DNA of 64,000 bases from Diaphorobacter ruginosibacter (GTDB lineage Bacteria; Pseudomonadota; Gammaproteobacteria; Burkholderiales; Burkholderiaceae_C). Below are positions 2,147 through 35,405 of the stretch, in pieces. Under the pieces are notes generated by a model that did no database searches, was not told the origin of the DNA, and was given only the letters and a program-made list of their open reading frames with translations. Position 1 is the first letter of the stretch, and the number at the start of each line of letters is the position of its first letter. Location of the stretch: contig NZ_CP060714.1 of assembly GCF_014395975.1 (NCBI RefSeq), positions 4,463,686 to 4,527,685 of the forward strand. Reading direction: 5' to 3'. A program made the position numbers and the translations under genes.

Positions 2147-2716
2147 TCATGCGTTGCCATCCGCCCGCGCCATGCGCTCGCTCTTCCAGTACACGTCATC
2201 TCCGCCATCGACGCGGTTGAGCACGCGTGCCAGCACGAAGAGCAGGTCGGACAGGCGATTCAGGTACTGGCGCGGCGCGGGACGCATGTTCTCCGCCTGC
2301 TGCAGCGCCACCACCGCGCGCTCCGCGCGGCGGGCCACCGTGCGGCATACGTGGGCCTGCGATGCGGCGCGCGTTCCTGCGGGCAGGATGAACTCCTGCA
2401 GGCGCGGCAGCTGCGCGTTGTAGTGGGCGAGCGCATTGTCGAGTTGCAGCAGGCCATCGTCCTTGAGCAGCTCGAAGCCCGGGATCGACAGCTCGCCGCC
2501 CAGGTTGAACAGCTGGTGCTGCACATCGACCAGCAGCTCGCGCACGTCGTCCGGCAGGGCCTCGCACAGCAGCAGGCCGATGTGGGAGTTGAGTTCGTCC
2601 ACGTCGCCCATCGCCTGCGGGCGTCCGCTGCTCTTGGAGACGCGCGTGTTGTCCCCGAGGCCGGTGGTGCCATCGTCACCCGTGCGGGTCGCAATCTGTG
2701 TCAATCGGTTACCCAT
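2147..2716 (-). CDS. PduO-type ATP:cob(I)alamin adenosyltransferase
   Basis: MGNRLTQIATRTGDDGTTGLGDNTRVSKS... is the canonical PduO/MMAB N-terminus, 189 aa. Confidence 0.8.
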   Translation of the reverse strand: MGNRLTQIATRTGDDGTTGLGDNTRVSKSSGRPQAMGDVDELNSHIGLLLCEALPDDVRELLVDVQHQLFNLGGELSIPGFELLKDDGLLQLDNALAHYNAQLPRLQEFILPAGTRAASQAHVCRTVARRAERAVVALQQAENMRPAPRQYLNRLSDLLFVLARVLNRVDGGDDVYWKSERMARADGNA

Positions 2717-2874
2717 GGGCTGTCATCTCCTCAATGTCTACGCAAGTTCTCCATTGTGCTTTACATCCCCGCTCCAAATGAGGAGGCCGGCAACAGCGGG
2801 CAAAAGTACTGGAATCAACGTGCCGCATGCGGTGCAATGCATCCATGTTCAACAGCCTTTTGGAGTCCGTGACC

Positions 2875-3159
2875 ATGCATCAGCCGACGCAACGCCGCAC
2901 CCCGATCACATGGTTCGACGCACGCAGCGTCATGCTGTTCGCCGCCTTGACCATCGGCGGGGCAGCAGTCCAGGCCCAGACCATGCAGACGCAGCCCCAG
3001 CCTGTACGCACAGCACAGAGCAGCGTGTCGCCCACATCAGCAACGACATCGACTTCGACCTCGACCGGCAGCACTGCCCGGCCCGCGGACACCCTGGCCG
3101 AGATGAAGAAACAGCGGCGCATGAACCGCGGCAGCGCCGCCCGCAAGAACGGTCAATGA
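2875..3159 (+). CDS. small putative secreted Ser/Thr-rich protein (hypothetical)
   Basis: GGAG RBS then ATG at 2875. RR-containing signal-like N-terminus (QRRTPITWF...LFAALTIGGAAVQAQT) and a low-complexity TSATTSTSTSTGS tail. A rho-independent terminator follows at 3276-3316. Confidence 0.4.
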   Translation: MHQPTQRRTPITWFDARSVMLFAALTIGGAAVQAQTMQTQPQPVRTAQSSVSPTSATTSTSTSTGSTARPADTLAEMKKQRRMNRGSAARKNGQ

Positions 3160-3275
3160 GCAGGGGGGCCCGGCGCCCCACGAGTTCACGGTACTGACGC
3201 ATTGCCGCACCGGTTTGCTTCCCCTCCGGATCGCAGGTTTCAGGTAGAGATGTTGACCTGCGACTCCGGATAAGA

Positions 3276-23140: not shown

Positions 23141-23293
23141 CCGTCGCGACGCCTCCTCTTTTGGGGTCCATGGGTTGCCTATTTTTTAGTCAATCACCAT
23201 CAATGGCCCGATCCTGCAAACCCGCCCGAGTCGGTATAGCATGTTCGAGGAAGCTTTCATTCCACCGTCTTTCGATTGAAAAAAGGAAACCTC

Positions 23294-23902
23294 ATGAAGC
23301 TCTATTACTCGCCCGGCGCCTGTTCCCTGTCGCCACACATCGTGCTGCAGGAATTGGGCCTGCCCTACACCCCCGTGCTGGCCAGCACCAAGTCGCACAA
23401 GCTGCAGGACGGAACGGACTTCTACACCATCAACCCGCTCGGCTATGTCCCCCTGCTGGAGCTTGACGACGGCAAGCGCCTGCACGAAGGCCCGGCCATC
23501 GTCCAGTACCTGGCCGACCAGGCCCCCGACAAGAAGCTGGCTCCCGCCAACGGCACGTGGGAGCGCTACAAGCTGCAGGAATGGCTGACGTTCATCGGCA
23601 CCGAACTGCACAAGAGCTTCAGCCCGCTGTTCAATCCCGCATCCACCGACGACGTGAAGAATGGTGCGCGCGAGCGCATCACCGGCCGCCTGCAGTTCGT
23701 CGAGAACGAACTGGCCGGCAAGCAATACCTGATGGGCGAGCAGTTCACCGTGGCCGATGCCTACCTGTTCACCGTGACCAACTGGGCCAAGCTGACGGGC
23801 GTGGACCTCTCCGGCTTCCCGAACCTCAACCAGTACCGCGAACGCGTTGGCGCCCGCCCGGCCGTCGTGTCTGCGATGAAGGCCGAAGGCCTGATCAAGT
23901 GA
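23294..23902 (+). CDS. glutathione S-transferase
   Basis: MKLYYSPGACSLSPHIVLQELGLPY is a GST N-terminal thioredoxin-like domain. An alternative ATG at 23276 is possible. Confidence 0.85.
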   Translation: MKLYYSPGACSLSPHIVLQELGLPYTPVLASTKSHKLQDGTDFYTINPLGYVPLLELDDGKRLHEGPAIVQYLADQAPDKKLAPANGTWERYKLQEWLTFIGTELHKSFSPLFNPASTDDVKNGARERITGRLQFVENELAGKQYLMGEQFTVADAYLFTVTNWAKLTGVDLSGFPNLNQYRERVGARPAVVSAMKAEGLIK

Positions 23903-24085
23903 TCCCGCGCAGCATTCGCTGCAGCAGGTTCTAGGTTCCAGAGAGTCCGGCATGTCCGCAAGGGTGTGCCGGATTCTTTGTTTGAACGAACCTTCGTCGC
24001 AGCAAGGGCTTGTACCGTGGGAGTGCACGTCCGGAAGCGGCGGATTAACCTAGCCTCTTCTCGAACCTTGAGCACGAAAGGCACC

Positions 24086-25201
24086 ATGACCTCCGCATTG
24101 TTCTCCCCCATCCAGGTCGGCGATCTGCGCCTTGCCAATCGCATCGCGATGGCGCCACTCACGCGCAACCGCTCCCCCGATGCCATCCCCCAACCCGTCA
24201 CGGCCACCTACTATGAACAGCGGGCCAGTGCAGGCCTGCTGATCACCGAAGCGACGGCCATCGATCCGCAGGCGCAGGGCTATGCCGACGTGCCGGGCCT
24301 GTACTCCAGCGAGCAGCTCGATGGCTGGAAGCGGGTCACCGATGCGGTTCACGCACGCGGCGGCAAGATCGTCACGCAGCTCTGGCATGTGGGCCGCATC
24401 TCGCACAACGACCTGCAGCCGGGCCACCAGGCGCCTGTGGCGGCTTCCGCCATCCAGGCGCGAAGCAAGACCTACCTGATCGACAAGACCAGCGGCAAGG
24501 GCCACTTCGTCCCCACCTCCATGCCGCGGGCCCTCAAGGTGCAGGAGCTTCCCGGCATCGTGCACCACTATGTCCAGGCCGCCCGCAGCGCGGTGCAGAG
24601 CGCCGGCTTCGACGGTGTCGAGATCCACGCAGCCAACGGCTATCTGCTCGAGCAGTTCCTCAAGGACGGCGCCAACCAGCGTACGGACGACTATGGCGGC
24701 TCCATCGAGAACCGCGCGCGGCTGATGCTGGAGGTCACGCGCGCCGTCGTCGATGCCGTGGGCGGCGGCAGGGTCGGCATTCGCCTCTCCCCCGTCACGC
24801 CGGCCAACGACATCGTGGACAGCGCGCCGCAGCCCCTGTTCGAGTATCTGGCGCGGCAGCTCGCACCGCTGGGCCTCGCCTACATTCATGTGATCGAGGG
24901 CGCCACGGGCGGCTCGCGCGAGGTGGAAGGCCGTCCGTTCGACTACCTGAGCTTCAAGGACGCCTACCGCCAGCATGGCGGCAAGGGCGTCTGGATGGTG
25001 AACAACGGCTACGACGGCGCCATGGCCGAGAAGGCGATCGCCAGCGGCCATGCCGACATGGTGGCTTTCGGCAAGCTGTTCATCTCCAACCCGGACCTGG
25101 TGAGGCGCCTGCACGACAAGGCCCCGCTCAACCCCTGGGACCAGTCGACGTTCTACGGCGGCGGCGAGCACGGCTATACCGACTACCCGGCCCTCGGCTG
25201 A
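24086..25201 (+). CDS. Old Yellow Enzyme-family NADH:flavin oxidoreductase (NemA-like)
   Basis: MTSALFSPIQVGDLRLANRIAMAPLTRNR...QLWHVGRISH, 371 aa. Confidence 0.85.
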   Translation: MTSALFSPIQVGDLRLANRIAMAPLTRNRSPDAIPQPVTATYYEQRASAGLLITEATAIDPQAQGYADVPGLYSSEQLDGWKRVTDAVHARGGKIVTQLWHVGRISHNDLQPGHQAPVAASAIQARSKTYLIDKTSGKGHFVPTSMPRALKVQELPGIVHHYVQAARSAVQSAGFDGVEIHAANGYLLEQFLKDGANQRTDDYGGSIENRARLMLEVTRAVVDAVGGGRVGIRLSPVTPANDIVDSAPQPLFEYLARQLAPLGLAYIHVIEGATGGSREVEGRPFDYLSFKDAYRQHGGKGVWMVNNGYDGAMAEKAIASGHADMVAFGKLFISNPDLVRRLHDKAPLNPWDQSTFYGGGEHGYTDYPALG

Positions 25202-25249: not shown

Positions 25250-28200
25250 TCACTTCCTCGTGTCGATCTCGTCGCGCGCCATCTTGTTGAAGGCGTTGTC
25301 GATCTCGTCGGCCCGCAGCGTGGGCTTGCCGTCGCCATGGCGGCGCAGCGCATCGATCTGCTCCTGCATGCGCGTGGCCACCTGCATGAGCACGCGGTGC
25401 AGGCCCAGCTGCTGGCGCCGCGAATGCTCCAGGTGATCTGCCACGGGCTGCATGGCCGTCTGAACGATGGCCCCCAGAAGCTGCGCAGAGCGCTCTGGCG
25501 CGTCATCTGCGTCCGCCCTACCCTCACCCCCAGGCACGGGCTTTTGAACGCTTGAGAGCGCGTTTCCGATGCGCTGCAGCGATTCATCCGTCGCACGCTG
25601 TGCCGCCTGCAGCTGTCCCAGCAATTCACCCCATTCGCCCTGCGAGCGCTGGGACTGCGCCTGCTGCAATTGCCCGAGCTTGAGCCAGAGCTGCCCCTGC
25701 TTCTCCGACTGCGACAGCTGCTTCTCGGTGCTGCTGTGCTGTGCGCCCGCCAGATCACGCGTCGCGGCCACCAGATCCACCAGCTGCGACGCCACGCGCG
25801 TACCGGCATCGGCCCCCGCACCGCCCATCGCCTTCTGGCGCAGGAACTCGGCCTTGATGTCGCCCCAGCGCGCCGCCTGCTCCGCATCGAGCGCACCGCG
25901 CAGCTCGCGCAGCTTGAGCAGGTTTTCCTCCGCGCCCGTGGTCAGCATCTGCGCCTCGCCCTGGTAGTGGTCGTCGAGCATCTGCTGCATTTCCGCATCG
26001 TTCATCACCGGCGTGATCTTCTCGGCCAGCTTGTTCATGTTGCGGTAGCTGCCCTGCAGCTTGAACGGCGGCTCCTTGCGGTAGTGATCATCCTGGGCCG
26101 CGCTCTGGATGTACTGTTGATTCACGTGAAACACGATCTCGCGCACCTTGAGCATGCGCTGCAGCGTGGCATCGATCTCGCGCAGCTCGGCGGACGAGTA
26201 CTCGTAGCTCAGCGCATTGCCCGACACCTCCTTGCCCTGTGCCTTCTCGATCAGCAGGTACAGGTCCTGCAGGCTGCGCGTCGCCATGGGGGCGAGCACG
26301 GCGTTGGAGGTCATGCTGTTCTCGATGTAGCTCAGCTTGAACACTTCCTCCATCCCGCCCAGCACATCGCCCAGGTTGTAGATATCGGCACGGTTGGCCA
26401 GCATGTCCGGAATCTTGAACACCTCGCCCGACTCTGTGTACGGGTTGCCCGACATGACGATGCAAAAGCGCTTGCCGCGCAGGTCATGGGTCTTGGTCTG
26501 CCCGCGCCACACGCCCTCGATGCGGCGCGTGCCGTCCGAGAGTGAAATGAACTTCTGCAGGAACTCCGGGTGCGTGTGCTGGATGTCGTCGATGTACAGC
26601 ATCACGTTGTTCGCCATCTCGAGCGCGAGGTTGAGCTTCTCGAGCTCCTTGGCGGCGGTGGCGTCGGGTGCCTGTGCGGGATCCAGCGAGCGCACGGAAT
26701 GGCCCAGCGCCGGGCCGTTGATCTTCATGAAGATCAGCCCCAGGCGGCTCGCCACGTACTCCATCAGCGTCGTCTTGCCGTAGCCCGGCGGCGAGATCAT
26801 CATCAGCAGGCCCATCTGGTCGGTACGCCGGGTCTCGCCCACCGCGCCGATCTGCTTGGCCAGGTTGTCGCCGATCACCGGCAGGTAGCTCTCGTTGATG
26901 AGCTTGTTGCGCACGAACGAGGTGAGCGGCCTGGCCTTGAACTCCTCCACGCGGATGCGCTCGCGGTAGCCCTTGAGCACCTGCTGGCGCAGCTGTTGAT
27001 AACGTTCGAACTCCGGCACGAAGATGCGGAAGTGGTGCGCCGCGCGCATGCCCAGGTCATCGATCTGCAGCGCCATGCGGCCGCCGTCGATGCGCGGGTG
27101 CTGGCCCAGCAGGCCCGTGACTTCGGCACGCAGGTCCACCGTGCTCACGGTGTTCGGCAGATGGCTTGCGCAGGTCAGCCAGGCCGCCGCCTCGCCGCAG
27201 TAGGCCAGCAGCGCATCGCCCTCTGCCGTCTTGAGCGCCCGGCACGCCGTCTGCAGCCAATGCAGCGCGCTGCGCCAGCGCTCCGACAGCGGCGCGACGT
27301 GATGGCCGTTGCTGCGCTGGTGGCGTGTGTCGCCCTGCCAGTACTGCAGCATCTCGTCCCATTGCTGCGGGTTCTGCGCATCGCTCCTGAGCACGCCCTG
27401 CAGTGCCGCAACCGCCGACTGGCCGTAGCTCGAGAAATGAAAGCGCAGCGCCTTCTGTGCGAGCTCCGCCTGCAGGTAGTTGGCGGCCGAACGGATGAGG
27501 CCGTCGATGTCGCCGTGCGCCGACAGGCCATGGAACAGTTCGAGCAGGCCGCCCTCCTCCGCAAAGGTCCGCAGTTGCACACCGATGTCGGCCTGCAGCG
27601 ACTGCAGTTCCGTCTCGCTTGCGAACAGCGCCTGCATGGACTGTGCGTGCTGCGCACGGCGCGGCCACTGTGCGATCGCGCCGGCCAGTTGCGGCTGCTG
27701 GATGCGCTCGTGCTCGCTCCAGAACAGCACGGCCAGCGCGCGTGCATCGGGGCCGAAACGCAGCACGCCGGCCGCGTCGCGCAGCGGCAGCAGCGTCTGC
27801 AGGATGAGCGCCGCATCATGGTCGTGGATGCCGCGCTCGTAGCCTTCGCGGTAGCGGGGCGCGGCAAACTCGCGCACCGCCTGGGTGAGCGCGGCGTGGT
27901 CGAGCGCCAGTTGCCGCAACCGCACCTCATCCCAGCCATCGGCGCGATTGCGCGCGGCCAGCAGCAGGCTGAGGGCAAGGTATTCGCCACGGTAGAACTG
28001 CGGCGACTCCGCCGGCGTCGACACATCCCAATAGGCCTGCAACTGCGCAAGCTCGGGGTTGTCCACCGCCTCGAAATACTCGGTGCCCACCAGATGCAGG
28101 AACAGCTCCCGCCCCTCCGCACCCCGCGGTAGCAGCGTGAGCTCCAGGTCCTGGTTGCCCACGCTGAACTTGTGGCGCCCGAGCTTGATGACGTTGCCGC

Positions 28201-30802
28201 CGCCATCGAACAGGTCCGTGCGGTCCTGCAGCGAACGGAAGGCCTGGTCGCGCAGCGTCTTCACGCGGGTCTCGATATCGTCCGCCTTCACGGGGTCGAA
28301 CAGCTCCGTGCGCAGCCGCTCGGCCAGTTCCTTGAGCTTGTTGATCAGCGGATCGCCCGCGAAGAAGGCATGCAGCGCCTCGTTCGAGGCCAGCTTTTCC
28401 GTGCGCTTGGGCAGGCTCTGCACGATGCGCAGCGCCGCGTCCAGCACGCCCTGCGCTCGGCGCTGGCGCTCGTCCTGCAGCGACTGGCGGCGGGCCTCGA
28501 AGGTCTCGAGCAGTTCCTCGCGCTTGGCGACGATGTCGGAGAGAAACTGCTCGTGCTCCCCGAACTGGCCTTCGATCTCCTCGAGCTGGACCAGCAGCCG
28601 CGCAAGCTGCTCATCGCACTTCTCCGGCGTCTGCGCAAGTCCCAGCGCATTGACGATGCTCTGCGAAAACAGCGCCAGCTGCGCCGCGAACTGCGCCACC
28701 TGCTCCGAGCTTCCAAGGCTGCTGCGGCGCTGCTCGGCGCGCGCACGCACCTGATTCAGGCGCGAATAGATCACCGAGATGCGGTCCACCACCTGCGTGC
28801 GCTGCGTGGCATCGTCGATCTTCAGTCCGCCCATCAATTCGGAGAGCATGTCGAGCGCAGCGGAGATGCGCGTCATCTCGGCCAGCGGCTCCTTGAGCAG
28901 CAGCACCGTGGCCGCCGCCTGCGCCTGCTGGTCGAGCGCCTGCAGTTCATCCACGTAGGGCTGCAGCGCCGCATCCGTGGCGACGAATGCCGCCGTGCGC
29001 TGCGACACATCGCCCTGCGCCTCGTTCACGGAAGCCACCATGGCATCGATGGCGGCCGTGTCCACATAGCGCAGCTCGCGCGTGGACATGAGCTGGCCGC
29101 GCAGCCTGGCCAGCTCATCGAGCGCGGTGACATGCTCGTCCACCGTCGCCCAGTCGCTGGTGCGCAGGTGCTTGAGCAGGCCTGCATGCTGCGTGGACAC
29201 GGCGCTCATCGCGCGCGTCGACGCCTGCCGGATGCTCTCGACCTTCTCGTATTCGTCGATCACCGCATCGCCCGTGGCGGCAATGCCGTGCAGCACCTCG
29301 TTCATCTGCGCGAGCTGCTGCGTGTTGATCCATTGATGGCGCTCGAACAGGCGGCGCGTGGTATCGATCAGGCGTTCATAGCGTGCCAGCGACACCTCGG
29401 GCGCGGCGATTTCCTTGCGCACGCTGTAGATGTCGGAGATGCCGCTGACCAGCTCCGCATTGCCGATGCGGCCGAGGAAGGTGTCCTTCTGCGGCTGGCT
29501 GGCGGCATAGTCCTCGGAGGCGAACGGCGTGCGCCAGATCTGCATGGGGTGCACGCGCGTGGCCTCGTCGCTGTCGGCCGCGAAGATCACGATCCGGCCG
29601 TCCTCGAGCCTCGCGTAGCCGTGGCAGACGATGGGCGGCTGCAGCGCGCGCTCGATCAGGTTGTACTTGAACAGCGCCATGCGTCCGCTGCCCGGCTCGT
29701 AGAAGATGTACAGCACGTCCTCGCCGTTGGGCGAGCGGATGCTGCGCCGGAAGCGCATGCCCTGCATGTCCTGCTCGAACCTCCGGTGCTCGCCGCTTTG
29801 CAGGTAGTAGCCGCCCGGAAAGATGATGCCGTGGTCGTCGGGCAGCTGGATGCAGGCACCCGCGATCGCGTCCATGCGCAAGACCTGCTGCGACAGCGTG
29901 TTGTAGATGAGGTAGCGCCACTGCTCCTCGCGGTACGGCAGGATCTTCAGCAGCACCATGCTGCCGACCTGCGCATACTCGAACACCGCATCGTCGAGCG
30001 ACTGGTTGGCCTCCTGCACCGGCTCGCTGTAGATGCCGAGGCCGTCGTTGGTGTTGTTCTCCACCTTCACGGTGAGCGTGCCGCCCAGCGTCTCGACGAA
30101 CACCTTGTCGAGGATGTTCATGTGCGCATGGCGGCCCTGGACGATCTGCTCGCGTCCCGCGCGCTGCCATTCGAAGTCGTAGGCCGATGGCGGCAGGATG
30201 TCGCGTTCGCCGCGGTTGTCTATGTACCTGACCGCCTTGCCGTCCGGCGAGATCGACCAGCGGAACACGCGCACGTCGGTGATGCGCTCGCCGATCTGGA
30301 AACTTGCGAGCAGCTTGCTGTCGCGCACGACGAGCTGCATGAGCCGCGTGTTCTTGTAATAGGCATAGAGCTCCTGGAAGTCCTGCACGAAGCTCTGGAT
30401 GCCCAGGAAACTGTCCTTGAGGTCGACCGGTGCCACGTCATAGCCGTGCTCGCCCTCCTCGAGCCGGTAGAGCGCAAACACATCCTCCACGCGCGTGGTC
30501 TGCTTGAGCCCCATGAAGACGTTGTAGCCGAACAGCAGGTATTCGCCCACCTGCGTGATGTCGCGGCCCACGCAGTTGTTCTCGGTGCGCACCCGCATGC
30601 GGCCCAGCACCTCCATCTGGCTGCGGCCGAACTCCTCAAGACGTTCCTCGTTGAGCTGGCGCACCAGCGATTCGAGCTGCTCGCCCTGCGCGGCCAGGCG
30701 CCTGGCCAGCACTTCATACGATCCACCGCTGGCAACGGCCTGATCGACGACGGAGGCGGGTTGTTGTTCGGTTGGATGAGGCGATTCGGACATCTTGATC
30801 AC
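25250..30802 (-). CDS. giant (1850 aa) multidomain protein with an embedded MoxR/dynein-type (AAA_5-like) AAA+ ATPase domain
   Basis: Uninterrupted 5.55-kb ORF. Walker A is MMISPPGYGKTTLMEYV (nt about 26776-26802, residue about 1335). Walker B is VMLYIDDIQH. The MoxR-like sensor region is FCIVMSGNPYTESGEVFKIPDMLANRADIYNLG. N-terminal about 470 aa is beta-rich. Long alpha-helical/coiled-coil stretches flank the ATPase; no TM helices. Start is GTG 30802 or ATG 30793. Confidence 0.85.
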   Translation of the reverse strand: MIKMSESPHPTEQQPASVVDQAVASGGSYEVLARRLAAQGEQLESLVRQLNEERLEEFGRSQMEVLGRMRVRTENNCVGRDITQVGEYLLFGYNVFMGLKQTTRVEDVFALYRLEEGEHGYDVAPVDLKDSFLGIQSFVQDFQELYAYYKNTRLMQLVVRDSKLLASFQIGERITDVRVFRWSISPDGKAVRYIDNRGERDILPPSAYDFEWQRAGREQIVQGRHAHMNILDKVFVETLGGTLTVKVENNTNDGLGIYSEPVQEANQSLDDAVFEYAQVGSMVLLKILPYREEQWRYLIYNTLSQQVLRMDAIAGACIQLPDDHGIIFPGGYYLQSGEHRRFEQDMQGMRFRRSIRSPNGEDVLYIFYEPGSGRMALFKYNLIERALQPPIVCHGYARLEDGRIVIFAADSDEATRVHPMQIWRTPFASEDYAASQPQKDTFLGRIGNAELVSGISDIYSVRKEIAAPEVSLARYERLIDTTRRLFERHQWINTQQLAQMNEVLHGIAATGDAVIDEYEKVESIRQASTRAMSAVSTQHAGLLKHLRTSDWATVDEHVTALDELARLRGQLMSTRELRYVDTAAIDAMVASVNEAQGDVSQRTAAFVATDAALQPYVDELQALDQQAQAAATVLLLKEPLAEMTRISAALDMLSELMGGLKIDDATQRTQVVDRISVIYSRLNQVRARAEQRRSSLGSSEQVAQFAAQLALFSQSIVNALGLAQTPEKCDEQLARLLVQLEEIEGQFGEHEQFLSDIVAKREELLETFEARRQSLQDERQRRAQGVLDAALRIVQSLPKRTEKLASNEALHAFFAGDPLINKLKELAERLRTELFDPVKADDIETRVKTLRDQAFRSLQDRTDLFDGGGNVIKLGRHKFSVGNQDLELTLLPRGAEGRELFLHLVGTEYFEAVDNPELAQLQAYWDVSTPAESPQFYRGEYLALSLLLAARNRADGWDEVRLRQLALDHAALTQAVREFAAPRYREGYERGIHDHDAALILQTLLPLRDAAGVLRFGPDARALAVLFWSEHERIQQPQLAGAIAQWPRRAQHAQSMQALFASETELQSLQADIGVQLRTFAEEGGLLELFHGLSAHGDIDGLIRSAANYLQAELAQKALRFHFSSYGQSAVAALQGVLRSDAQNPQQWDEMLQYWQGDTRHQRSNGHHVAPLSERWRSALHWLQTACRALKTAEGDALLAYCGEAAAWLTCASHLPNTVSTVDLRAEVTGLLGQHPRIDGGRMALQIDDLGMRAAHHFRIFVPEFERYQQLRQQVLKGYRERIRVEEFKARPLTSFVRNKLINESYLPVIGDNLAKQIGAVGETRRTDQMGLLMMISPPGYGKTTLMEYVASRLGLIFMKINGPALGHSVRSLDPAQAPDATAAKELEKLNLALEMANNVMLYIDDIQHTHPEFLQKFISLSDGTRRIEGVWRGQTKTHDLRGKRFCIVMSGNPYTESGEVFKIPDMLANRADIYNLGDVLGGMEEVFKLSYIENSMTSNAVLAPMATRSLQDLYLLIEKAQGKEVSGNALSYEYSSAELREIDATLQRMLKVREIVFHVNQQYIQSAAQDDHYRKEPPFKLQGSYRNMNKLAEKITPVMNDAEMQQMLDDHYQGEAQMLTTGAEENLLKLRELRGALDAEQAARWGDIKAEFLRQKAMGGAGADAGTRVASQLVDLVAATRDLAGAQHSSTEKQLSQSEKQGQLWLKLGQLQQAQSQRSQGEWGELLGQLQAAQRATDESLQRIGNALSSVQKPVPGGEGRADADDAPERSAQLLGAIVQTAMQPVADHLEHSRRQQLGLHRVLMQVATRMQEQIDALRRHGDGKPTLRADEIDNAFNKMARDEIDTRK
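26117..26132. promoter_or_regulatory. parS-like site (TGATTCACGTGAAACA, 1 mismatch)
   Basis: Inside the giant AAA+ gene. Confidence 0.6.
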
Positions 30803-30958
30803 GCGCTTTCACTGGTGGCTCGCGCTCCCGCCAGCGGGAGAGAAAGGAAGGTGAGGGTCGTTGGGGATCGGGGGCAGCGTGATTTCCAATGCTGCCGATG
30901 CCTTCACCCCGGCCCTCTCCCGCACGCGGGAGAGGGAGCCTGAAGGCCGATTTCAGCC

Positions 30959-33043
30959 TCAGGCAGCAGGCGGCTGCTTGCCGTTGTCGGAGCCGCTGCC
31001 GGAGCCGCTGTTGCCCAGCAGCGCGCCCACACCGCCCTTGCTGTTCAGGAACTTGTTCAGCAGCTCCTGCACGATCGGGCTCTTGCCGGACACGCCCTCG
31101 ATCGCCTTGCCCACGGAGAGCGCCTTGGCGAAGTTGTCGAAGAACGCACCCTCGCCGCCCACGATGTCGATGTTGGCCTTGCTGAGCGCCGAGGACAGCA
31201 CCTCGGCCTGCTCCTTGGCCACGGTCTTGTTGGCATCGATGGCCGCGAGTGCCTGCTCGAAATTCTTCTCGAGCTGCATGCGGAACTCCTCGTGCGAGCG
31301 CGCCTGATCCGACAGGCCGCCGAGCGCCGTGAACTTCTCGGTCAGGCCCTTGGCTTCCGCGAACAGCTTGTCGCGCAGCACATCGGCTTCGGACTGGCCC
31401 ACCTCGCGTGTGACCGTGGCCCTGGTCGCACCCACCTGCGCCTCGCCGCGCGCCTGTGCAAGCAGACGCTCTTCGAGCACCTTGGCGTCGGCCAGGCCCT
31501 GCTTCTCGTTGGCATCGGCCGTGGCCTCGATCACGCGGGCATGCGCAAGACCCTTTTCCTGGTCGCCCTTGGCCTCGGCAATGAGGCGCTCGGCGATCAC
31601 CTTGGCCTGTGCCAGGCCTTCCTTCTCGATCGCGGCAGCGGTGACCTCGCGCACCTTCGCGTCGGCCAGGCCGGGCGCCGCACGCTCCACCTCGATGGCC
31701 TCGGCCATCTTCTTCTTGGCCTCGGCGGTCTTGCCGGCGGCCTCGAGCTCGGCCTGCGCGAGCGTGGTGACTTCCACCGCCTTGTGGCGCGACGCGGTCT
31801 CGTCGGCCTCGGCCTTCTTCACCTGGCGCACCAGGTCTTCCTGCGCCTGCGCCTCGGCGGTCAGCACCGTGACCTGCTTCATGCGCTCGGCCTCGGAAAC
31901 CACGCGCACTTCCTTGATGCGTTCCTCTTCCTGCGCCACGGTCTTTTCCACCGCCACGCGCTCGCGGACCACGTTGGCAATGTTGGCCTTCTCGACCTCG
32001 ATGGCCTTTTCCTTCTCGATGCGCTGCAGCTCCACCTCACGCTCGCGCGAGACGATCTCGAGCTCCTTGGCACGCGTGACCTTCTCGATCTCGATGACCA
32101 CCGCGCGCTCGCGGTTCTGCTGCGCCACGGCCACCTCGCGGGCCTTGTTCTCCTCGCGGATGTCCAGTTGCTCCTGCGTCTGGATGCGGGCCTGCTCGGC
32201 CTTCAGGCGCTCTTCCTCCTGCACCTTCTGGGTCTCGGCCTGCTCCCGCGCCTGGATGGTCGCGATCTCGCGCTTCTGCCGCGCTTCCGCATCGGCCTGC
32301 TGCCGAGCCAGGGCCAGCATGGCTTCCTTGGTTTCCACGTTCTTCTTGGTGATCGCGAGATCGGCGTTGCGCTCCAGTTCGTTGGTCACGATGTTCTGGT
32401 TGGCGGTCAGTTCGGTGATCTTGCGGATGCCCTCGGCGTCGAGGATGTTGTTGGGATCGAGCGAGGACTTCGGTGTCTGTTCGAGGTAGTCGATCGCCAC
32501 GTCCTCGAGCACGTAGCCGTTCAGGTCGTTGCCGATCACGTGGATGATCTGGTCGCGGAAATCCTGGCGGTTCTCGAACAGCTTCACGAACTCGATCTGC
32601 TTGCCGACGGTCTTGAGCGCCTCGGAGAACTTGGCGTTGAACAGCTCGTTCACGGCCCCCTTGTCGGAGGCGCGGTCCACGCCGATGGACTTGGCCACCT
32701 TGAGCACGTCTTCGGCCGTCTCGTTGACGCGCAGGTAGAAGGCCACTGTGATGTCCGCACGCATGTTGTCCTTGCAGATCAGTCCTTCCTTGCCGCGCCG
32801 GTCGATCTCCAGCGTGATCAGCGAGATCTGCATGAACTCCTTCTTGTGGATCACGGGCAGCACCAGGCCGCCGGTGAACTTCACCTTGGGCTGCGACGTG
32901 GTGTCGTTGATGATCAGCGCCGTGCCCTGCGGCACCTTGATGTAGAAGGCCTTGACCATGGCCAACATGGCAAAGATCAGCACGACGATGACCGCAACGG
33001 CCACGCCGAGAACGATGTACCACTCGGAGAAGTTCAAGCTCAT
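30959..33043 (-). CDS. flotillin-family (SPFH/Band 7, YqiK-like) membrane protein
   Basis: N-terminal TM helix, SPFH domain, then a long EA/EQ-rich coiled coil (AEAEARQKREIATIQAREQAE...), 694 aa. Confidence 0.9.
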   Translation of the reverse strand: MSLNFSEWYIVLGVAVAVIVVLIFAMLAMVKAFYIKVPQGTALIINDTTSQPKVKFTGGLVLPVIHKKEFMQISLITLEIDRRGKEGLICKDNMRADITVAFYLRVNETAEDVLKVAKSIGVDRASDKGAVNELFNAKFSEALKTVGKQIEFVKLFENRQDFRDQIIHVIGNDLNGYVLEDVAIDYLEQTPKSSLDPNNILDAEGIRKITELTANQNIVTNELERNADLAITKKNVETKEAMLALARQQADAEARQKREIATIQAREQAETQKVQEEERLKAEQARIQTQEQLDIREENKAREVAVAQQNRERAVVIEIEKVTRAKELEIVSREREVELQRIEKEKAIEVEKANIANVVRERVAVEKTVAQEEERIKEVRVVSEAERMKQVTVLTAEAQAQEDLVRQVKKAEADETASRHKAVEVTTLAQAELEAAGKTAEAKKKMAEAIEVERAAPGLADAKVREVTAAAIEKEGLAQAKVIAERLIAEAKGDQEKGLAHARVIEATADANEKQGLADAKVLEERLLAQARGEAQVGATRATVTREVGQSEADVLRDKLFAEAKGLTEKFTALGGLSDQARSHEEFRMQLEKNFEQALAAIDANKTVAKEQAEVLSSALSKANIDIVGGEGAFFDNFAKALSVGKAIEGVSGKSPIVQELLNKFLNSKGGVGALLGNSGSGSGSDNGKQPPAA

Positions 33044-33105
33044 GGTTTCAGTTCCTCACAGAGAAAATCACAAAAGAAAAACGGGAAAAAATCAGGGTCG
33101 GCCGA

Positions 33106-33777
33106 TCAGCGCAGCGGCAGATCCAGGCCTTCGAATTCGGCCTTGCTCACCACGCGCCAGGCGTTGTGTTCCGGCATGCGCTCGATGAGCACGACCTCGG
33201 TGCCACGCGGCAGTTCGCGGTCGGGCGAGCGCATCTGCACGTTGAGTCCGCCGCCGCCGTCCTCGACGCTGCCGTAGCCCTGGCTCGCGTTGACCACGGC
33301 GCTGCGCACCAACCCCGTGCGGCCCAGGACGACCTTGGCCTCCTCGGGAGGCGCCACCATGGCGATCGCCTTGCGCAACGGCCGCAGCACGATGACGGTG
33401 GCAACGAAGCCCAGCACCGATGCGGCCGCGAACAGCCCGGTGCCGGTGACGATGTTCAGGAGCGTCCAGCCCTCGGGCATGGGCACGAGGTGCGCCAGAG
33501 CGTAGCTGATGAGCCAGGAGAGCAGGAACAGCACGGTCAGGATCACCGTGAGCGGAATGCCACCCAGCCCCACCTTGAGCAGCAGCCCGGCGAGCGCACC
33601 GATGGAATCCTCGGCACCGTGCCCATGGTGGCTGCCGTCGAACAGCACCCAATGGTCCATGGAGTCCACTTCCACCAGCCCGAAAATGGCGATCACCCAG
33701 TACAGCAGCATGCACAGCAGCAGCATGCCGAAAATGAATGTCGGGAATCCCAGCGCGTAATGCAAGAACGCCGTCAT
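33106..33777 (-). CDS. YqiJ/NfeD-like inner-membrane protein (DUF1449-type: N-terminal TM helices and C-terminal OB-fold)
   Basis: Same architecture as E. coli YqiJ. The C-terminal beta domain is GTEVVLIERMPEHNAWRVV. GAAGGAGGG RBS. Sits immediately upstream of flotillin, as in yqiJK. Confidence 0.75.
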   Translation of the reverse strand: MTAFLHYALGFPTFIFGMLLLCMLLYWVIAIFGLVEVDSMDHWVLFDGSHHGHGAEDSIGALAGLLLKVGLGGIPLTVILTVLFLLSWLISYALAHLVPMPEGWTLLNIVTGTGLFAAASVLGFVATVIVLRPLRKAIAMVAPPEEAKVVLGRTGLVRSAVVNASQGYGSVEDGGGGLNVQMRSPDRELPRGTEVVLIERMPEHNAWRVVSKAEFEGLDLPLR

Positions 33778-33955
33778 ACAGACCCTCCTTCGATGGATGA
33801 TGTTGTTGTGTTGCGCTGCCCGATCAGGCGGGGGCCTGTCGGGGCAGCTCTTCGATCCTTGAGGAACTTCTTATTGATCTTTCTGGATGGACTCGCCTGC
33901 ACCGCCGCGCAGGGGCGGCGCCCAGGCTGGGGTTCGGGCGCGGCCCGGGCCCCGG

Positions 33956-34663
33956 TCAGGCACTCTTGCCGGCCGAGGCCTTCTGCGCTTTCAGGCGCTC
34001 CAGCACCGACTGCGCATTGCCCTGTTGTGGCGTGATGCCCGCAGCCCGCAGTTTCGCATCCAGGGCGTCCTCGCTGCCTTCGCGCGCAAGTTCGGCCGCG
34101 CTTTGCAGGCGCGCGCCGCGCTCGGCCTGCTTCTGCTTGATGCGTTCGAGCGAATCCAGCGCGTTCTGCACCCGCGACTGCGAGCCGGTATAGCGCCCCG
34201 CAACGGTGGCCTGGGCGCGCTGCACGCTCTCGGTGGCCTTCACCGTGTCGGCCTGCTGCTTGAGGCGCTTGATGTTGGTGGTGGCCGCCTGGATCGCATG
34301 GCGCAGCTCGTCCACGCTCTGCGTGTAGGCCGCAAGCTGCGACTCCTCCTCGGCCTGCTGGGCCTCGAGCAGCGAGACCTTGCCCGCCACTTCCAGCGCC
34401 AGCGTCTCGTCATTCGTCTCGAGCGCCTTGAGCGCGTAGCCCTCGTATTCACCGATCTTGAGCTGCGTGGCCTGCAGCCTGGAGGCAGCAAGCTTCTGCT
34501 TGGCCATGATCTCGGCCAGCGCTTCCTTGGACTTGTTCAGGTCGTTGTCCGCGTCGCGGATTTCCTGGTCGAGGATGCGCAGCGCCTGACTGTCGGTGAC
34601 GGCCTCGCCCGCTTCGTGTGCGGCACCGCGCAGCGCGGTCACCAGCTTGTTCCAGACTGCCAT
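33956..34663 (-). CDS. PspA/IM30-family protein (YjfJ-like; ESCRT-III superfamily)
   Basis: MAVWNKLVTALRGAAHEAGEAVTDSQALRILDQEIRDADNDL... follows the PspA/Vipp1 helical pattern, 235 aa. AAGGAG RBS. Confidence 0.85.
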   Translation of the reverse strand: MAVWNKLVTALRGAAHEAGEAVTDSQALRILDQEIRDADNDLNKSKEALAEIMAKQKLAASRLQATQLKIGEYEGYALKALETNDETLALEVAGKVSLLEAQQAEEESQLAAYTQSVDELRHAIQAATTNIKRLKQQADTVKATESVQRAQATVAGRYTGSQSRVQNALDSLERIKQKQAERGARLQSAAELAREGSEDALDAKLRAAGITPQQGNAQSVLERLKAQKASAGKSA

Positions 34664-34710
34664 GATGAACTCCTTGTGCTGTGGGTTGTCGTTGCGTTGC
34701 CCGAACCGCT

Positions 34711-35364
34711 TCAGGCCTGCTGGGCGCGCGGCAGATAGCCGGCGAGCGCCTCGGTCACCTGGATCACGCTGTCGGCCAGCGCCAGGATTTCGCAGATGAT
34801 GTCGTCGCTGCTGCTCGTGGCGCGCATGGCCGAGAACATCACGTAGCCTTCGCCTTCCGAGCCCAGCGGCTCGAGCGCGAGCGTCGCATGGGGAAAGAGC
34901 TTCTGCAGGCGCAGGATCTGCTCGTTGAGGCCGGCGCGGTCGGCGACGTCCGCCGCCGACCAGAGGAACGCCTCCACGACGAGCTGGTCGCCCGAGAGCG
35001 CAAGGTGCACGGGCAGGTCACCGAAATCCGGCAGCGTGACCAGCAGGCTCGCGTCGGCGCCTTCCAGCACCTCGACCTGCAGGCGGCCGCCTTCGGCCAG
35101 CGCGGAGCGTTGCAGGTCTTCTGCAAGGCTGTGAATGTTCCAGTACGGATGTGTGCTCGATTCCATGTCACCCTCCTTGTGGTCAAAAGCCAAAGACTCG
35201 GGATGCGCCCCGGGCAGGCGCATCAACCTCTCCAGCCGCTGCAGGGCTTGCCCGTACTGCGGCAGGATCCACACCTCTTTCTTCACCAGCCCCTGCTCGC
35301 GCAGCCGCTGACGGTGCAAACGCTGGTAATGTGCCGAGGTTTTCGGTTCCAGTTTCGGTTCCAT
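34711..35364 (-). CDS. DUF2170 (YjfI-like) protein; the ORF has an in-frame 66-codon N-terminal extension (alternative strong internal start at 35166)
   Basis: SLLVTLPDFGDLPVHLALSGDQLVVEAFL aligns with E. coli YjfI. AAGGAGGGTGAC-ATG at 35166 would give the canonical 151-aa product. The upstream 198 nt is in frame and codon-biased. Confidence 0.6.
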   Translation of the reverse strand: MEPKLEPKTSAHYQRLHRQRLREQGLVKKEVWILPQYGQALQRLERLMRLPGAHPESLAFDHKEGDMESSTHPYWNIHSLAEDLQRSALAEGGRLQVEVLEGADASLLVTLPDFGDLPVHLALSGDQLVVEAFLWSAADVADRAGLNEQILRLQKLFPHATLALEPLGSEGEGYVMFSAMRATSSSDDIICEILALADSVIQVTEALAGYLPRAQQA

Positions 35365-35382
35365 GCGTCTACTCTAACTTCA

Positions 35383-35405
35383 TTACATGTGATGTGTACA
35401 TGTAA
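35383..35405. promoter_or_regulatory. palindromic candidate operator TTACATGTgatgtgTACATGTAA
   Basis: Two ACATGT palindromes in inverted arrangement, sited between the ATG at 35364 (minus) and the cobB ATG at 35428. Confidence 0.4.

Follow-up and report, generated by a model that had tools for sequence, protein, structure and literature searches.

A conserved operon of five genes, one of them for a giant ATPase, lies in a 64-kb stretch of the Diaphorobacter ruginosibacter genome (contig NZ_CP060714.1; this whole 64,000-nt stretch is called the window below). The operon is very probably the counterpart of the bac operon of Pseudomonas aeruginosa (bacABCDE = PA3732-PA3728). Its five co-directional open reading frames (ORFs) are named A to E here, from the upstream to the downstream end (lengths in amino acids, aa):

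34711-35364, minus strand: gene A, BacA/YjfI-like protein, 217 aa, with DUF2170 at residues 75-211 and a basic N-terminal domain (N-domain) at about residues 1-52
33956-34663, minus strand: gene B, PspA/IM30 protein (ESCRT-III-like) of the YjfJ/BacB type, 235 aa, assigned by Pfam and by identity to YjfJ
33106-33777, minus strand: gene C, YqiJ/short-NfeD-like membrane protein, 223 aa, hydrophobic helices and then a soluble domain at the C-terminus
30959-33043, minus strand: gene D, YqiK-type flotillin, 694 aa, counterpart of PaFlo3/BacD, assigned by BLASTP to YqiK
25250-30802, minus strand: gene E, giant cytoplasmic protein with DUF3686, DUF7902 and a weak AAA match

These genes form a real and conserved operon, and their arrangement is well above chance. 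The intergenic gaps (A-B 47 bp, B-C 178 bp, C-D 62 bp, D-E 156 bp) and the coordinates are exactly those of the first-pass annotation of this DNA, and all five gene identities proposed there hold, those of C and D only after tests beyond Pfam (a comparison of a hidden Markov model, HMM, with YqiJ and a BLASTP search against YqiK). The annotation had also given each gene its own ribosome-binding site. This is true of B, C and D, which are preceded by Shine-Dalgarno sequences (AAGGAG, GAAGGAGG and GAGGAA, respectively), but none is visible before A and E. Similarly, gene E does encode a giant AAA+ protein, but the 1850 aa assigned to it count from a GTG at 30802; a start at the ATG at 30793 (MSESPHP..., 1847 aa, gap to D of 165 bp) appears more likely, as in a 99%-identical database twin. 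On the upstream side a CobB/CobQ-like gene diverges from the operon, and some 63 bp separate its ATG from that of gene A. Downstream, an Old-Yellow-Enzyme (OYE) oxidoreductase gene on the plus strand (23966-25201) is convergent with the operon and marks its boundary.

Genes A and B form an upstream dyad. The product of gene A matches Pfam DUF2170, a CesT/Tir-like chaperone domain, with an E value of 7e-41, and the crystal structure PDB 8Q8O ('DUF2170 family protein') with 4e-32. Against the NCBIfam model for the Pseudomonas 'biofilm formation regulator BacA' it scores 237 bits, under the model's 300-bit cutoff, which is set for a species-level equivalog. Gene B gives a full-length match to Pfam PspA_IM30 (E 6e-47, residues 3-228), is 36% identical to Escherichia coli YjfJ across its full length (E 4e-34) and matches solved Vipp1/PspA structures with an E value of 1e-5.

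Genes C and D are more elusive. Pfam, NCBIfam (NfeD, DUF1449) and PDB sequence searches gave no match for gene C, and BLASTP found a weak pairwise match to E. coli YqiJ. An HMM of 72 gene C family sequences scored 26 bits against YqiJ, in a colinear alignment over positions 17-199 of 213 (E 2e-10, the value for that single comparison). In gene D, an N-terminal transmembrane (TM) helix is followed by an SPFH-like region and by a long coiled coil rich in Glu and Ala. Neither it nor its Pseudomonas orthologue matches Pfam Band_7 even at E <= 10; NCBIfam and PDB searches also returned nothing, and the precomputed Pfam annotation is blank for 120 gene D homologues. By BLASTP, however, gene D matches E. 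coli YqiK with an E value of 5e-39 (28% identity over 455 residues, from residue 8), and the alignment runs colinearly through the TM helix and the SPFH region into the coiled coil. Its homologues carry the source names 'flotillin family protein' or YqiK. Since the profile libraries and PDB are blank for both genes, their homology is shown by direct or profile comparison with the E. coli proteins. Thus, among the profile searches suggested by the first-pass annotation, DUF2170, PspA_IM30 and, weakly, AAA were recovered, but Band_7 and NfeD/DUF1449 were not.

The giant product of gene E matches DUF3686 (E 1e-200) and DUF7902 in Pfam, with a weak AAA match, and contains no TM segment and no protease domain. 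AlphaFold models were built in two halves, each from a 38-sequence alignment, with mean pLDDT values of 80 (N half) and 74 (C half). In these models a helix (residues 16-58) is followed by a beta-propeller (about 64-424, the DUF3686 region), long helices (442-862, including DUF7902), a small beta domain (873-913), a helical stretch to about residue 1290 and an AAA+ module (about 1320-1480). A helical lid and conserved C-terminal helices then extend to about residue 1655, before a variable tail. All 91 Foldseek matches of the N half at E <= 1e-3 are beta-propellers, among them WD40 proteins, prolyl-oligopeptidase propellers, the clathrin terminal domain with its linker, and YncE. An exhaustive search with residues 1-697 yielded 278 clusters (50% identity) at E <= 1e-30. 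Full-length family members measure a uniform 1590-2036 aa down to about 25% identity, so the giant architecture is a conserved state. Among 8000 candidates scored, the closest relatives are encoded by a Burkholderiaceae metagenome-assembled genome (MAG; 99% identity) and by Diaphorobacter (89%).

The AAA+ module is well conserved within the family, in which Walker A (GYGKT), Walker B (YVDD), Asn1453 and Arg1471 are invariant. The Walker B of the window protein (residues 1402-1408, at about 26579-26599) reads LYVDDIQH, with Asp-Asp rather than Asp-Glu, and resembles the DnaA-type IDDIQF. Foldseek matches the module alike, at E of about 1e-2, to NorQ/CbbQ (MoxR type), RuvB, Clp, Lon and MCM, and a family profile compared with solved proteins, including p97/Cdc48, finds similarity limited to 35 residues around Walker A. 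MoxR systems typically have a nearby partner with a VWA domain, and no such domain occurs in the five products or the flanking genes. The label 'MoxR-type' given in the first-pass annotation is not established. The model also places a beta-hairpin (about residues 1427-1440; strands 397-402 and 405-410 of the C half) between helix alpha-3 and the sensor-1 strand. Such a pre-sensor-1 hairpin is not known from classical-clade AAA enzymes such as Vps4, and its predicted presence argues mildly against a Vps4-like module; as a test against that clade it has moderate strength, being drawn from a model. By Pfam, the protein has no MIT domain. The module is thus without an assignable clade, and neither a MoxR nor a Vps4 assignment is supported.

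The neighbourhood of gene E is conserved across many bacteria. With one genome scanned per species, relatives of gene E turned up in at least 556 stretches, from which 80 loci were kept; synteny was counted in the 70 of these with at least 4.6 kb of upstream flank. YqiJ-like and flotillin genes lie directly upstream of the giant gene, on the same strand, at every one of the 70, and none has the giant ATPase without flotillin. The DUF2170-PspA dyad is additionally present in 47/70 and missing in 23/70, where unrelated housekeeping genes lie upstream, grouped by taxonomy alone. These counts identify the flotillin/NfeD pair, not PspA, as the constant partner of the ATPase. In 21 of the 80 loci, none of them from Comamonadaceae, the ATPase gene is followed by bacF, a gene of the PLD/HKD type, and no BacF homologue is found anywhere in the window. 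In summary, the unit is modular, with a never-split core triad (C-D-E), an optional dyad (A-B) and an optional PLD gene. The first-pass annotation had read the five genes as one module and suggested a neighbourhood analysis to check this; adjacency to flotillin at all 70 loci and to PspA at 47 bears out a conserved unit. The operon is broadly conserved with lineage-typical neighbours and is not island-like, and no regulator gene is conserved beside it, upstream of either gene A or gene C.

Some loci depart from this picture in detail. In six of them (L007, L008, L068, L069, L071 and L081), 1-3.3 kb of unrelated DNA separates the flotillin and giant genes, and the inserts include duplicated Rpn-like genes (L071) and a gene for a 463-aa membrane protein (L081); the core triad therefore tolerates insertions at the D-E junction. 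At two loci from MAGs labelled Longimicrobium (L033, L037) and one from Candidatus Adiutrix (L068), the giant protein shares 53-59% identity with that of the window, a similarity equal to that of the gammaproteobacterial proteins. Such closeness in MAGs assigned to non-proteobacterial phyla suggests binning contamination or recent horizontal transfer.

Both the gene set and the operon have been described before. In P. aeruginosa, a 'biofilm-associated cluster' was originally defined as PA3732-PA3729 (PMC2587700) and later widened to bacABCDEF (PA14_16140-16200; PA3732-PA3727) by RT-PCR across every junction in strain PA14 (PMC10948618). The locus of P. paraeruginosa (L017) has A-B-C-D-E in the same order, with identities to the window proteins of 49%, 57%, 35%, 74% and 59%, respectively (tblastn, each over near-full length). 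The bac operon shares the five proteins, their order and orientation, and also a pair of palindromes before gene A. It differs in having the sixth gene, bacF; the Pseudomonas BacF (L017, 15246-15953) is a PLDc_2 protein (E 1e-29), and this PLD/HKD identity is not mentioned in the PA14 paper that named BacF. In a computational survey, Ravi et al. (mSystems 2024, posted on bioRxiv in 2020) described an operon class with a CesT/Tir(DUF2170)-PspA dyad, a band-7/flotillin protein, a YqiJ/YuaF membrane protein and a novel propeller-AAA+ ATPase, together with a PLD/HKD hydrolase in some Proteobacteria and more widespread, abbreviated operons without PspA (PMC11237479). This is exactly the domain set of the window, including the optional PLD and the PspA-less form. 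The promoter palindromes and the N-domain of the DUF2170 protein do not appear in that paper; otherwise there is no essential difference, and the counts of 47/70 full and 23/70 abbreviated loci put numbers on its qualitative statement. In a 2026 paper the flotillin is named PaFlo3, and the protein encoded next to it is called a 'short NfeD' (PMC13086221). The 'arc' antagonism-resistance clusters (eLife 2022) were considered as another match and rejected; the loci concerned are different, and PA3729 features in that study only among background pull-down proteins.

The first-pass annotation had called this combination 'not described as a unit' and had named a match to an already characterised system as grounds for refutation; the bac operon is such a match. 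Since computational as well as experimental work has already presented these genes as a unit, the claim of discovery does not stand, and the operon in the window is an ordinary instance of a known, partly characterised system. A conserved ATPase of about 1,800 residues, wired to flotillin in hundreds of bacterial species, nevertheless marks a problem already visible in the literature. Two results sharpen the tests that can be made of it, namely that flotillin/NfeD is the constant partner of the ATPase and that the PspA dyad brings with it an operator pair and a candidate autorepressor.

The second of these results comes partly from the 63-bp spacer between gene A and the cobB-like gene, which holds the following features:

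35383-35392 and 35396-35405, unstranded: palindrome pair TYACATGTRA, candidate operator
35371-35376, minus strand: candidate -10 element TAGAGT, assigned from the sequence layout (35365-35376 with the 6 nt to the ATG of gene A)

TYACATGTRA has three matches in the 64 kb, two of which are this pair. Of the 47 dyad loci, from both beta- and gammaproteobacteria, 44 carry two or more sites in the 250 bp before gene A, at a density of 7.1/kb compared with 0.026/kb elsewhere in the loci (about 275-fold). None lies upstream of gene C in the 23 loci without A-B, and none is found at E. coli yjfI. The two palindromes are spaced 13 bp apart in the window, whose host is a betaproteobacterium, and in other Comamonadaceae, compared with 21-24 bp in gammaproteobacteria (for example, L017 5668-5710).

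In most loci the region is laid out as TTGAnn, 2-3 nt, the second site, about 5 nt, TAnnnT, 5-8 nt and ATGGAA. The window promoter reads ...TCACATGTAA-TGAAGT-TAGAGT-AGACGC-ATG, and P. paraeruginosa has the same layout (L017, 5705-5728). Such spacing fits a σ70-type promoter that carries a candidate repressor site between its two hexamers, and gene A would apparently be transcribed with no leader or almost none. A leaderless mRNA would explain why gene A has no Shine-Dalgarno sequence. For PA14 bacA, a σ54 promoter has been proposed from sequence inspection only. No σ54 -24/-12 element (TGGCAC-N5-TTGC-like) is present in the 63-bp spacer or conserved across the loci, and the dyad-linked operator pair with its candidate autorepressor also argues against that proposal.

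The candidate autorepressor is BacA itself. The approximately 50 N-terminal residues of gene A (35209-35364) are highly conserved and basic, with the consensus K.SA.YQR..R.RLR..GLVKKE.W.LPE....L...E...R in the DUF2170 proteins of the operon, and E. coli YjfI (133 aa) lacks them. Against Pfam 'Antitoxin MazE-like', 17 of 25 family members give matches, all of them sub-threshold (best E 7e-4). The domain also appears to vary together with the operator. Of 39 loci whose sites have an ACATGT core, 38 encode a protein A with Ala11 and Glu30; all five loci with variant sites (TTTCATGTAA/TTACATGAAA) encode one with Thr11 and Asp30. These five form one clade and probably reflect a single evolutionary event. 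In addition, a transposon insertion in bacA was reported to raise the abundance of BacB-F 6- to 13-fold (PMC10948618). This co-variation and the protein increase make the BacA N-domain a candidate DNA-binding autorepressor. Neither the palindrome pair, the leaderless promoter nor the N-domain was found in the literature searched.

A profile of the N-domain also retrieves free-standing proteins of 47-70 aa with the same motif. These were considered as members of toxin-antitoxin pairs and rejected as such, their contexts being mobile-element-like or defence-like with no clear pairs. At four loci (L083-L086, gene at about 2230-3174), for instance, a 57-aa homologue ends a run of small genes and adjoins an integrase gene and a gene for a 3028-aa LPD38 'large polyvalent protein', a mobile-element setting.

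Taken together, a bac-type operon with a flotillin-centred mechanism is the preferred reading of this locus, with a probability of roughly 0.6 for the whole; the flotillin-centred role of the giant ATPase, taken separately, has close to an even chance, or slightly less. Under this reading, the flotillin, with the YqiJ/NfeD-like protein as its presumed membrane partner, probably builds an SPFH scaffold at the inner membrane, on the side facing the cytoplasm. The bulk of the flotillin is predicted to be cytoplasmic because its N-terminal TM helix is followed by lysines. The beta-propeller and the long helical region of the giant protein probably attach it to this scaffold. Its one AAA+ module, which presumably forms a ring, would then build up, reshape or take apart the scaffold, or pull clients out of it. 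At loci with PspA, this ESCRT-III-type polymer may be brought in to stabilise membrane under stress or to seal it again. The DUF2170 protein would restrain PspA through its chaperone-like domain and probably represses the operon by binding the palindromes with its basic N-domain. The module would be switched on by envelope stress, in Pseudomonas including phage infection and growth on surfaces or in biofilms; Bac products are reported to accumulate in biofilm and surface-attached cells. The role in ATP-driven membrane remodelling offered by the first-pass annotation is, in this general form, a reasonable interpretation.

Several points weigh against the preferred reading. Deletion of paFlo3 in PA14 had a mild effect, with about 20% less biofilm (PMC13086221). 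The topology of the flotillin is a prediction from its sequence, and Asp-Asp in place of Asp-Glu in the Walker B motif may mean that ATP hydrolysis is slow or regulatory. The two longest spacers of the operon are predicted to be highly structured (see below) and could attenuate co-transcription. Finally, the bacA mutant is a transposon insertion, and read-through could explain the higher levels of the downstream proteins.

Precedents exist for coupling a membrane scaffold with an AAA+ machine. SPFH scaffolds with AAA+ partners include HflK/C with FtsH and prohibitin with the m-AAA protease. The window resembles these systems in encoding a predicted SPFH membrane scaffold next to an AAA+ protein. 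Its AAA+ protein, however, has no TM segment or protease domain and instead carries a beta-propeller and about 400 helical residues, and its flotillin is predicted to face the cytoplasm rather than the periplasm. The PspA-PspF system of E. coli offers a parallel for regulation: there, as would be the case in the window, the gene for a PspA-family protein is accompanied by one whose product controls transcription of the operon. The window, however, has no sigma-54 enhancer-binding protein and no conserved sigma-54 promoter; its candidate regulator would be a small basic domain joined to a chaperone-like one, and the promoter on which it would act is sigma-70-like. E. coli also has counterparts of genes A to D in YjfI (DUF2170), YjfJ, YqiJ and YqiK. 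As the first-pass annotation stated, these lie at two separate loci, yjfIJ(KLMC) and yqiJK, without a propeller-AAA+ gene. The yjfIJ genes belong to a polyamine-type operon, in which the yjfI product lacks the basic N-domain and the promoter lacks the palindromes.

A bolder version of the mechanism gives the giant protein the role of an ATP-driven remodeller that acts first on flotillin cages and second on PspA/ESCRT-III polymers, and so takes the Vps4 role. In this version the DUF2170 protein would be a two-domain switch, its antitoxin-like, DNA-binding N-domain and PspA-binding chaperone domain tying transcription, by way of the TYACATGTRA pair, to the level of free PspA. Both the remodeller and the switch are speculative, and we consider them doubtful in this form. 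The field holds that bacteria lack an ATPase controlling PspA/ESCRT-III dynamics; if this version were true, the giant remodeller would fill the Vps4 role with a non-homologous enzyme.

A related explanation is that the giant ATPase is mainly a functional Vps4 analogue that disassembles or recycles PspA polymers, with flotillin/NfeD serving just as its platform. As in the ESCRT-III/Vps4 systems of archaea and eukaryotes, genes for a PspA/ESCRT-III-family polymer and an AAA+ ATPase occur together; in two thirds of the loci the two belong to one operon, and PA3728-PA3732 are induced together. A 2025 review notes that bacteria have no known counterpart of Vps4, which leaves the niche unfilled, and Ravi et al. 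suggested ATP-dependent remodelling for PspA-AAA+ associations (PMC11237479). The gene neighbourhoods point elsewhere, with the ATPase and flotillin/NfeD present without an adjacent PspA in a third of the loci (the 23 noted above), and never the ATPase without flotillin. The protein itself gives no help, having no MIT-like domain by Pfam, an unassignable clade, a predicted pre-sensor-1 hairpin, and its best structural matches in Lon, Clp and NorQ. The Vps4 analogy drawn in the first-pass annotation is weakened accordingly by the variable presence of PspA and by an AAA+ module that is not demonstrably of the classical clade, and we regard this explanation as improbable.

A second alternative takes the system mainly as a regulator of biofilm formation and virulence rather than of membrane maintenance. 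Its basis is experimental, in that PA3731 and bacA mutants have defects in biofilm formation, rhamnolipid production, swarming and virulence (PMC2587700, PMC10948618), and NCBIfam names BacA a 'biofilm formation regulator'. The gene set itself speaks against this, since PspA, flotillin and NfeD are structural, membrane-associated types encoded with an ATPase, and many carriers are non-pathogens, including this Comamonadaceae genome. The modest loss of biofilm in the paFlo3 deletion fits poorly as well, and the biofilm phenotypes are plausibly downstream of envelope defects. A primarily regulatory role is thus more improbable still.

The first-pass annotation also raised the possibility of an envelope-based anti-phage defence system. 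In a 2025 transcriptome, the 'phage shock proteins (PA3728-PA3732)' were among 17 genes induced in all phage-infected samples (PMC12041424), some versions of the operon include a PLD/HKD gene, and large ATPases and PLD proteins are common in defence systems. Phage induction is, however, expected of a membrane-stress ('phage shock') response and is not evidence of immunity. PADLOC 2.0 returned only LmuB/JetC coiled-coil noise on PspA (E 7e-5 and 2e-3) and nothing for the other four proteins, and the PLD gene is not in the window. The context is also that of ordinary core genome. The GC content of the operon region (63-68%) equals that of the rest of the window, which contains no tRNA or integrase gene; the neighbours are housekeeping genes (mnmG, a glutathione S-transferase (GST) gene, the OYE oxidoreductase gene, the cobB-like gene and a copper P-type ATPase gene), and those of the related loci are lineage-typical. 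The anti-phage idea is unsupported, and a defence function seems very unlikely.

Relatives of gene E are mostly named 'DNA repair ATPase' (5688 of 8000 scored candidates are relatives at E <= 1e-10), a name that comes from PGAP/UniRef and corresponds to the Pfam description of DUF3686, 'ATPase involved in DNA repair'. That the protein truly is a DNA repair ATPase, placed among membrane genes by accident, is hardly credible: the names, a weak RuvB match and the position of recJ two genes downstream in Pseudomonas favour it, but recJ is not near the operon in the window, the RuvB similarity is a P-loop match of about 45 residues around Walker A, Pfam finds no nuclease, helicase or DNA-binding domain in gene E, the literature searched does not mention DUF3686, and flotillin/NfeD adjoins the gene at every locus counted. 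With a RuvB likeness confined to the P-loop and invariant neighbours that are membrane proteins, the label is unsupported, and it is probably a propagated misannotation.

The spacers within the operon include two with predicted structure:

33778-33955, minus strand: B-C spacer, 178 nt, GC-rich hairpins directly after the pspA stop codon (minimum free energy, MFE, -74.9 kcal/mol)
30803-30958, minus strand: D-E spacer, 156 nt, two CTCCCGC-N2/3-GCGGGAG hairpins at 30825-30840 and 30917-30932, found by pattern match and folding

The B-C spacer is the junction of the accessory A-B dyad and the core C-D-E triad. Its hairpins are not followed by a T-run, so they are not a canonical terminator. The two hairpins of the D-E spacer compare with 0.01 matches expected, and the spacer folds with an MFE of -74.6 kcal/mol and has no Rfam match. 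It may act as an attenuator or a processing site or represent a small repeat element, and might tune expression of the distal ATPase gene. An Rfam search of the whole operon likewise gave no match, and no canonical terminator was found within it; a generic scan for σ70 promoters and terminators was uninformative. The C-D spacer (33044-33105, 62 nt) is strikingly T-rich (GATTTTTTCCCGTTTTTCTTTTGTGATTTTCTC) in a genome of 66% GC.

Downstream of gene E, two further minus-strand ORFs, 24050-25171 (373 aa) and 23186-24028 (280 aa), were considered as a sixth operon gene. They lie antisense to the OYE gene and to the GST gene (23276-23902, plus strand), respectively, and their translations are typical high-GC antisense junk. 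Both were therefore rejected as antisense artefacts, which leaves five genes in this operon, and they illustrate how easily a sixth could be mis-called in a high-GC genome.

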